Origin: Escherichia coli
GTDB taxonomy: Bacteria; Pseudomonadota; Gammaproteobacteria; Enterobacterales; Enterobacteriaceae
Assembly: GCF_965641715.1 (NCBI RefSeq)
Contig: NZ_OZ282453.1
Reading direction: 5' to 3' (one strand)
DNA: 64,000 nucleotides
How positions within the stretch are numbered: the stretch's first letter is position 1; each line of letters starts with the position of its first letter. This document shows, piece after piece, positions 19,748 to 19,826 of this stretch. The notes under the pieces were generated by a model. It worked only from the letters and a program-made list of their open reading frames with translations. It made no database searches and was not told the origin of the DNA. The translations under genes and the position numbers were made by a program.

Positions 19748-19826
19748 TGTTTTATCCTTATCAACATGTTTTCACCCTCTCCCTGTGGGAGAGGGCCGGG
19801 GTGAGGGCATCAAGCCGCACCCATTA

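Follow-up and report, generated by a model that had tools for sequence, protein, structure and literature searches.

The closest described relative of the structure analysed here is a palindromic repeat of Escherichia coli described in the 1990s and first named BoxC, a name that reportedly comes from Bachellier et al. The same repeat was later called PIT, for potential intrastrand triplex (Hoyne et al., 2000), and TMECO (Holder et al., 2015; PMC4666352); it is known from E. coli and other Enterobacteriaceae, and an independent survey lists BoxC as an E. coli family of 50–56 bp with 22–32 copies (PMC2267715). The TMECO consensus is 5'-CCCTCNCCC N3-6 GGGNGAGGG N3 GGGNGAGGG[GTC-]-3' (PMC4666352). 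An oligonucleotide of type B, identical to the motif treated here, folds in vitro into an intrastrand triplex of high stability (Tm 78 ± 1 °C, by CD and NMR), but DMS footprinting detected no stable triplex in vivo, and the spectra of the duplex form were those of B-DNA (PMC4666352). In tests that used other copies and constructs than the one between deoB and deoD, PIT elements acted neither as promoters nor as terminators and left RNA polymerase unaffected (Hoyne and Maher, 2002, summarised in PMC4666352). Our search for later TMECO/PIT literature found no paper after 2015.

The deoB–deoD hairpin as part of a BoxC/PIT/TMECO type B repeat

The window, i.e., the whole 64-kb stretch of E. coli DNA that was analysed, carries deoC-deoA-deoB-deoD in that order on its − strand, matching the best-matching annotated genome. 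The 2.1-kb deoB–deoD stretch has a match in 5424 of 5426 complete E. coli genomes, at 90–99% identity. The features of the locus are as follows.

19827–21050, − strand: deoB; stop TGA at 19827–19829, followed by an in-frame TAA at 19824–19826
19748–19826, − strand: deoB–deoD spacer, BoxC allele, 79 nt
19028–19747, − strand: deoD; ATG at 19745–19747
19775–19795, no strand assigned: reported hairpin; C-block CCCTCTCCC at 19775–19783, loop TGT, first G-block GGGAGAGGG at 19787–19795
19799–19807, + strand: third block GGGTGAGGG, checked for purine-motif triplets against GGGAGAGGG
19775–19808, + strand: complete TMECO/PIT motif of type B (second loop CCG), 34 nt
about 19767–19820, + strand: full BoxC unit of ~54 bp; left flank tgttttca, 34-nt motif, right flank atcaagccgcac
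19755–19759, − strand: deoD Shine–Dalgarno sequence AAGGA, 7 nt before the ATG
18969–18996, − strand: intrinsic terminator of the deo operon; 12-bp stem with eight G-C pairs and a T-run, 32 nt past the deoD stop

An earlier note on this DNA had described a perfect 9-bp stem with a TGT loop at 19775–19795 and placed it between two co-transcribed genes, deoB and deoD. Read directly, the sequence is CCCTCTCCC TGT GGGAGAGGG, exactly the letters described, and the gene names and the position inside the operon are right, with both genes on the − strand. As a palindrome, the hairpin can form on either strand. The pattern occurs nowhere else in the 64-kb window, even with up to three mismatches, and not once in 100 dinucleotide-preserving shuffles. 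Folded as RNA of the transcribed (−) strand, it gives a 10-pair stem (nine G-C/A-U pairs and a closing G-U) of −19.6 kcal/mol (z = −3.7), and none of 200 shuffles folds as well. This strong hairpin starts 30 nt past the deoB stop; the first, weaker hairpin of the BoxC unit starts 4 nt past it.

The earlier description stopped 13 bases early and so missed the adjoining third block, CCG GGGTGAGGG C at 19796–19808, which is what shows the identity of the feature. In full, 19775–19808 reads CCCTCTCCC-TGT-GGGAGAGGG-CCG-GGGTGAGGG-C on the + strand, three 9-nt blocks of which the reported hairpin makes up the first two, i.e., two-thirds of the BoxC/PIT/TMECO motif. A regular-expression scan, which also found the K-12 copies, matched these positions exactly to the published consensus (CCCTCNCCC N3-6 GGGNGAGGG N3 GGGNGAGGG[GTC-]), and the 34 nt are identical to E. 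coli K-12 TMECO nos. 1 and 4, both of type B (PMC4666352, Table 1). The C-block and first G-block form nine of nine Watson–Crick pairs, and GGGTGAGGG, laid antiparallel to GGGAGAGGG, gives allowed triplets at all nine positions (7 G.G-C, 1 T.A-T, and 1 A.A-T). The three blocks thus fit a class II purine-motif intrastrand triplex, a Watson–Crick hairpin with an antiparallel G-rich third strand.

The likeness extends beyond the motif. We extracted 14 K-12 BoxC copies from eight loci for comparison of their flanks, and those of the window copy (tgttttca and catcaagccgcac) resemble those of the K-12 type B copies (gttttct and catcagcgcgcac); these common family flanks place the full unit at ~19767–19820. 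By megablast, the window spacer and the copy between xynR and argF share a 46-nt match at 93.5% identity. Used as a query, the spacer matches each E. coli genome at a median of four places and at most 11, as a dispersed repeat would, and copies of BoxC were seen in the hrpB-mrcB, xynR-argF, ilvC-ppiC, fepB-entC, ygfF-gcvP, alx-sstT, and lldD-trmL spacers. A search of Rfam 15 over 18500–21500, at E values up to 10, returned matches at chance level only (the best, mir-320, scored 18.6 bits against a gathering score of 55.5, E = 0.86). Judged by its letters, the hairpin is a known dispersed repeat and not a locus-specific regulatory structure.

The copy has, moreover, been catalogued. Table S8 of PMC4666352 gives as no. 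123 a copy in NC_010468 (strain ATCC 8739) at 4021997–4022030 with the same sequence as the window motif; the end of deoD there is at 4021969 and the start of deoB at 4022049, so no. 123 sits in the spacer with the same offset as the window motif. No. 108 of the same table (E24377A, 4959886–4959919) likewise lies inside the deoB–deoD spacer (4959868–4959946). The 79-nt spacer is identical in ATCC 8739 and strain Res13-Sevr-PER07-33, and that of E24377A differs at two bases (loop ACA to TCA in mRNA sense, and one flank base) with both stems intact. On sequence grounds, then, the deoB–deoD copy is an already known family member, entered in that table by Holder et al. (2015).

Our preferred reading, to which we give a probability of about 0.85, is that the hairpin is the Watson–Crick core of one BoxC/PIT/TMECO type B copy that most likely does not terminate transcription, leaves translation of deoD unblocked, and acts at most as a passive barrier to exonucleases. 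The analysis shows what the element is, which family it belongs to, that the locus is polymorphic, and that terminator features are lacking; the behaviour in RNA and near-neutrality of the copy at the deoB–deoD locus we infer.

Copy number of the family as a whole seems to track lineage, because the counts differ between strains that we take to belong to phylogroup B2 (CFT073, APEC O1, S88, SE15, and ABU 83972) and strains that we take to belong to A/B1 (K-12, ATCC 8739, E24377A, and 55989); an O18:H1 strain, for its part, carries a variant native allele at the deo locus. The first five strains have 1–2 TMECOs each and the last four 19–29 (PMC4666352, supplement).

Two alleles in E. coli and the spacer in other species

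The deoB–deoD spacer of E. coli is polymorphic. The 79-nt BoxC spacer was found at ≥80% coverage in 2489 complete genomes, and a different, single-copy spacer of 56 nt in 2935, among them K-12 and O157; together they account for all 5424 genomes that hold the locus (46% BoxC, 54% native). Strains HS and E. coli C, like ATCC 8739 and E24377A, have the BoxC allele. Within the K-12-type class, 1695 genomes match at ≥99%, including K-12 derivatives and O157:H7, and 1239 match at 90–95%, including the O18:H1 strain mentioned above; a separate scan found the K-12-type spacer in the representative genome of E. albertii as well. All that the two alleles share is TGAT past the end of the deoB frame and GGATAAAACA ahead of the deoD start. 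The coding flanks are almost identical right up to the edges of the spacer, so the replacement of one allele by the other is short and has sharp limits. The native allele has its own hairpin, GGGCGGAG-cgttga-CTCCGCC followed by TTTGTTAT, which a consensus scan calls terminator-like.

L001, 1272–1293: native-allele hairpin in the single-copy K-12-type spacer, the counterpart of window positions 19748–19826

In the lineage of the window, the three-block BoxC element occupies the site that a simple terminator-like GC hairpin holds in K-12, O157, and E. albertii. The possible leaky internal terminator between deoB and deoD in K-12 may deserve attention in its own right.

Two candidate signs of how the element arrived were considered and rejected. 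The sequence TGATAA at 19824–19829 and again at 19758–19763 could pass for a target-site duplication left by transposition; we judge it coincidental. The upstream TGATAA is the double stop codon TGA-TAA, and the downstream one is part of the GATAAGGA ribosome-binding region, which is kept in species without BoxC, and it reads AGATAA in E24377A; the K-12 BoxC copies have no flanking duplications. Horizontal import with flanking DNA was likewise set aside: over 180 nt on either side of the spacer, at the end of deoB and the start of deoD, the window resembles K-12 and not Pseudocitrobacter faecalis, so any transferred tract would be shorter than ~100 nt.

A second variable spot lies close by. 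Between lplA (17556–18572) and deoD the window has an 87-aa helix-turn-helix gene at 18604–18867 (+), in the position taken in K-12 by yjjJ, a HipA-family toxin gene; strains 20Y000092 and Res13-Sevr-PER07-33 carry the small helix-turn-helix gene, as the window does. The difference between yjjJ and this gene makes the spot variable, ~160 bp away from where the deo operon ends.

For a wider view, one genome per species was scanned for the DeoD N-terminal coding pattern, which gave 120 loci, 108 of them with deoB immediately upstream. A hairpin of −10 kcal/mol or below occurs in 79% of these 108 species' spacers, usually starting within ~15 nt of the deoB stop, and spacers of at least 50 nt have a median folding z of −3.2. 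In 15 species (of Pantoea, Erwinia, Pectobacterium, and Brenneria) the spacers are short (26–43 nt) and unstructured. Across the 108 species the spacer usually holds some palindromic element, be it a native hairpin, REP, ERIC, or BoxC.

The K-12-type hairpin was found in E. albertii and another Escherichia genome, and related GGGCGG...CCGCCC hairpins lie at the same position in Kosakonia, Cedecea, Pluralibacter, and several Enterobacter-like species; a native GC hairpin is likely the ancestral state. Covariation in the native hairpin across genera is modest, with compensatory changes at two of seven pairs in an alignment that has register problems. A regular-expression classifier for REP, ERIC, and BoxC was applied to the loci of the other species. 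By resemblance to the consensus sequences, the elements in Enterobacter asburiae, Citrobacter youngae ATCC 29220, and Pseudescherichia vulneris are presumably of REP type, and those in C. werkmanii and Kluyvera presumably ERIC.

BoxC in the orientation of the window was seen in E. cloacae, Leclercia, Phytobacter, strain RIT691, an Enterobacter MAG, and Pseudocitrobacter faecalis; at least seven species of several genera carry it at the same site and in the same orientation. Some of these spacers are composite: that of E. cloacae holds 1.5 tandem BoxC copies, that of Leclercia (L038) a BoxC beside a REP-like element, and that of strain RIT691 (L083) a BoxC core to which a native-like GGGGGCGG arm is attached. 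This last junction could be the footprint of a BoxC entering a native hairpin. The spacer of P. faecalis is 91% identical to that of the window over its whole length, with coding flanks at 88–89%; such identity exceeds what is expected of a neutral spacer and counts against the view of BoxC as a passenger.

Among the loci L011–L130 the C-terminus of DeoB falls into two classes, one ending in a 10-residue string not reproduced here and the other in ...SPM[D/E]YGKNML, and these classes cut across genera, separating P. faecalis (L037) from a Pseudocitrobacter MAG (L093) and E. cloacae (L019) from Enterobacter sp. ENT03 (L087). The pattern hints that the 3' end of deoB recombined, or was transferred, together with the spacer.

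The hairpin in RNA and DNA

The deo mRNA corresponds to the − strand and carries the C-rich complement, GCCCUCACCCCGGCCCUCUCCCACAGGGAGAGGG. Purine-motif triplexes are absent in RNA, and the C-rich pyrimidine-motif form requires acid (PMC4666352); by our own reading, the pyrimidine-motif form would also contain one A.A mismatch. At neutral pH the transcript, being C-rich here, should therefore form no more than a strong hairpin of the usual kind. It is preceded in the mRNA by a second, weaker hairpin (GGGUG.GGC...GCC..CACCC) to which the right flank contributes and whose 5' arm also takes two bases outside the BoxC unit (19821–19822). The deoD Shine–Dalgarno sequence begins 14 nt past the end of the strong hairpin and is unpaired in both the minimum-energy and the centroid folds; given this gap, it lies clear of the hairpin. 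After the stem comes UGAAAACA, with one U in eight positions and no U-tract, and the consensus terminator scan makes no call at the BoxC hairpin with its tail TGAAAACA; the same scan calls both the native K-12-allele hairpin and the operon terminator.

In the deo mRNA, then, the BoxC copy would fold as a strong but otherwise ordinary hairpin without a U-tract, and the ribosome-binding site of deoD would stay accessible. Transcription would run through the hairpin and translation of deoD would be unblocked. At most it would act, in the manner of REP, as a passive barrier to 3'–5' exonucleases that protects the upstream deoCAB RNA. Such a barrier role is suggested by analogy with REP hairpins; stem-loops at RNA 3' ends block 3'–5' exonucleases as a general principle (PMC7509114).

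The earlier note had also suggested an RNA stability or processing element. Taken as a selected function, this would make BoxC interchangeable with the native hairpin, REP, and ERIC as an intercistronic element that protects deoCAB RNA or sets the deoB:deoD ratio, and it differs from the preferred reading only in that selection. We consider it unlikely. The commonness of hairpins across species could mean selection, with the BoxC copy more than a passenger: 79% of the 108 species have one at or below −10 kcal/mol and the median z is −3.2 in spacers of at least 50 nt, native stems are kept between genera with compensatory changes in two of seven pairs, variants of the E. coli BoxC allele differ in loop and flank and not in the stem, and 3'-end stem-loops do stop exonucleases (PMC7509114). 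The 15 species with unstructured spacers of 26–43 nt show, however, that a hairpin is not required, and many intergenic regions gain palindromic repeats with no selection acting on the individual site. The BoxC stem, moreover, is invariant between species and shows no covariation, as is expected of a repeat conserved in sequence and not as an RNA structure, and no functional or positional bias was found for the TMECOs of K-12.

Action at the level of DNA seems to us doubtful to a similar degree. The G-rich, triplex-capable strand is the window + strand, i.e., the template for deo transcription, and in single-stranded G-rich DNA the third block could fold back into an intrastrand purine-motif triplex. 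A transient triplex or cruciform might on this account stall replication or provoke recombination and make the spacer a hotspot, which would explain the replacement of elements and is compatible with the preferred reading. The identical type B oligonucleotide does adopt a very stable triplex structure in vitro, melting at 78 °C, and TMECO loci are more variable than control sites among 56 E. coli strains (PMC4666352). The two-allele spacer fits that variability: E. coli has two alleles with sharp boundaries there, and the genera compared hold four or more types of element. Yet DMS footprinting in vivo gave no stable triplex and the duplex gave B-DNA spectra, PIT elements that blocked DNA polymerase in vitro had no effect in vivo, and the REP and ERIC spacers of other genera are equally variable without a triplex motif.

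The turnover can also be read as a slot that selection keeps filled with a stem-loop, in which native, REP/BIME, ERIC, and BoxC cassettes swap, so that expression of deoD relative to deoB becomes strain-specific. On this account the swaps would come about by very short-tract recombination or hairpin-targeted insertion, and the E. coli alleles would stand at intermediate frequency. We regard this as a speculative and quite improbable account, the mode of swapping included; if it were true, the same-site BoxC of at least seven species and the RIT691 fusion would point to how BoxC spreads.

The earlier suggestion of a partial terminator, taken as an intrinsic terminator or attenuator by which less deoD than deoB would be expressed, is unsupported, given the missing U-tract and the inactivity of PIT elements in published tests, and we hold it to be very improbable. 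In its favour, the stem is strong and G+C-rich (−19.6 kcal/mol) and lies between co-transcribed genes, and the alternative allele is terminator-like at the same position. But the tail, UGAAAACA, has one U in eight, no T/U-run follows the stem, the terminator scan makes no call, and PIT elements lacked terminator activity and any effect on RNA polymerase in the tests of Hoyne and Maher (2002). Literature on deoB/deoD terminators or intergenic transcripts yielded only work on the GlnZ sRNA and Salmonella deoD, unrelated to the hairpin, and no deoB or deoD entry was found in the supplementary files searched for an E. coli 3'-end mapping study (PMC7815308). Finally, a chance inverted repeat without any family identity is already refuted by the absence of matches in 100 shuffles and the 34-nt identity to catalogued family members.

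Comparison with known systems

The preferred reading, a type B copy of BoxC/PIT/TMECO, carries small weight for operon biology: what stands out as a hairpin in a familiar operon is one copy of a repeat already in the catalogue, not a purpose-built regulator. RefSeq records annotate nothing at the spacer, which leaves BoxC copies open to being misread as regulatory hairpins. What E. coli does offer here is a natural allele pair, strains with a terminator-like spacer and strains with a BoxC spacer, ready for testing the effect of BoxC on mRNA.

Intrinsic terminators and the BoxC hairpin are both G+C-rich stem-loops downstream of a stop codon. A terminator, however, has a U-run after its stem, a pattern that the native K-12 hairpin and the hairpin after deoD both fit and the BoxC hairpin does not.

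REP/BIME elements come nearer: they too are repeated, palindromic, and G+C-rich, lie between co-transcribed genes, and form a stable hairpin without a U-tract. The sequence families are nevertheless unrelated. REP has the consensus GCCGGATG...CTTATCCGGCCTAC, and by inspection no such motif is present in the window spacer, whereas REP-like ones occur in the spacers of E. asburiae, C. youngae, and P. vulneris. A stabilising function has been demonstrated for REP and, to our knowledge, never for BoxC.

Holder et al. (2015; PMC4666352) give the deo copy by its coordinates only, without naming its deoB–deoD context, the two-allele split of the species, or the allele shared with P. faecalis. What is mildly new here is therefore the clean split between BoxC and terminator-like alleles, the allele common to Pseudocitrobacter, and the turnover of several kinds of palindromic element at one site. 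With the BoxC/PIT/TMECO family itself the window copy has everything in common, i.e., the same 34 nt, the three-block layout, the CCG second loop, the flanks, an intergenic position, and a multi-copy distribution, and in sequence the two do not differ.
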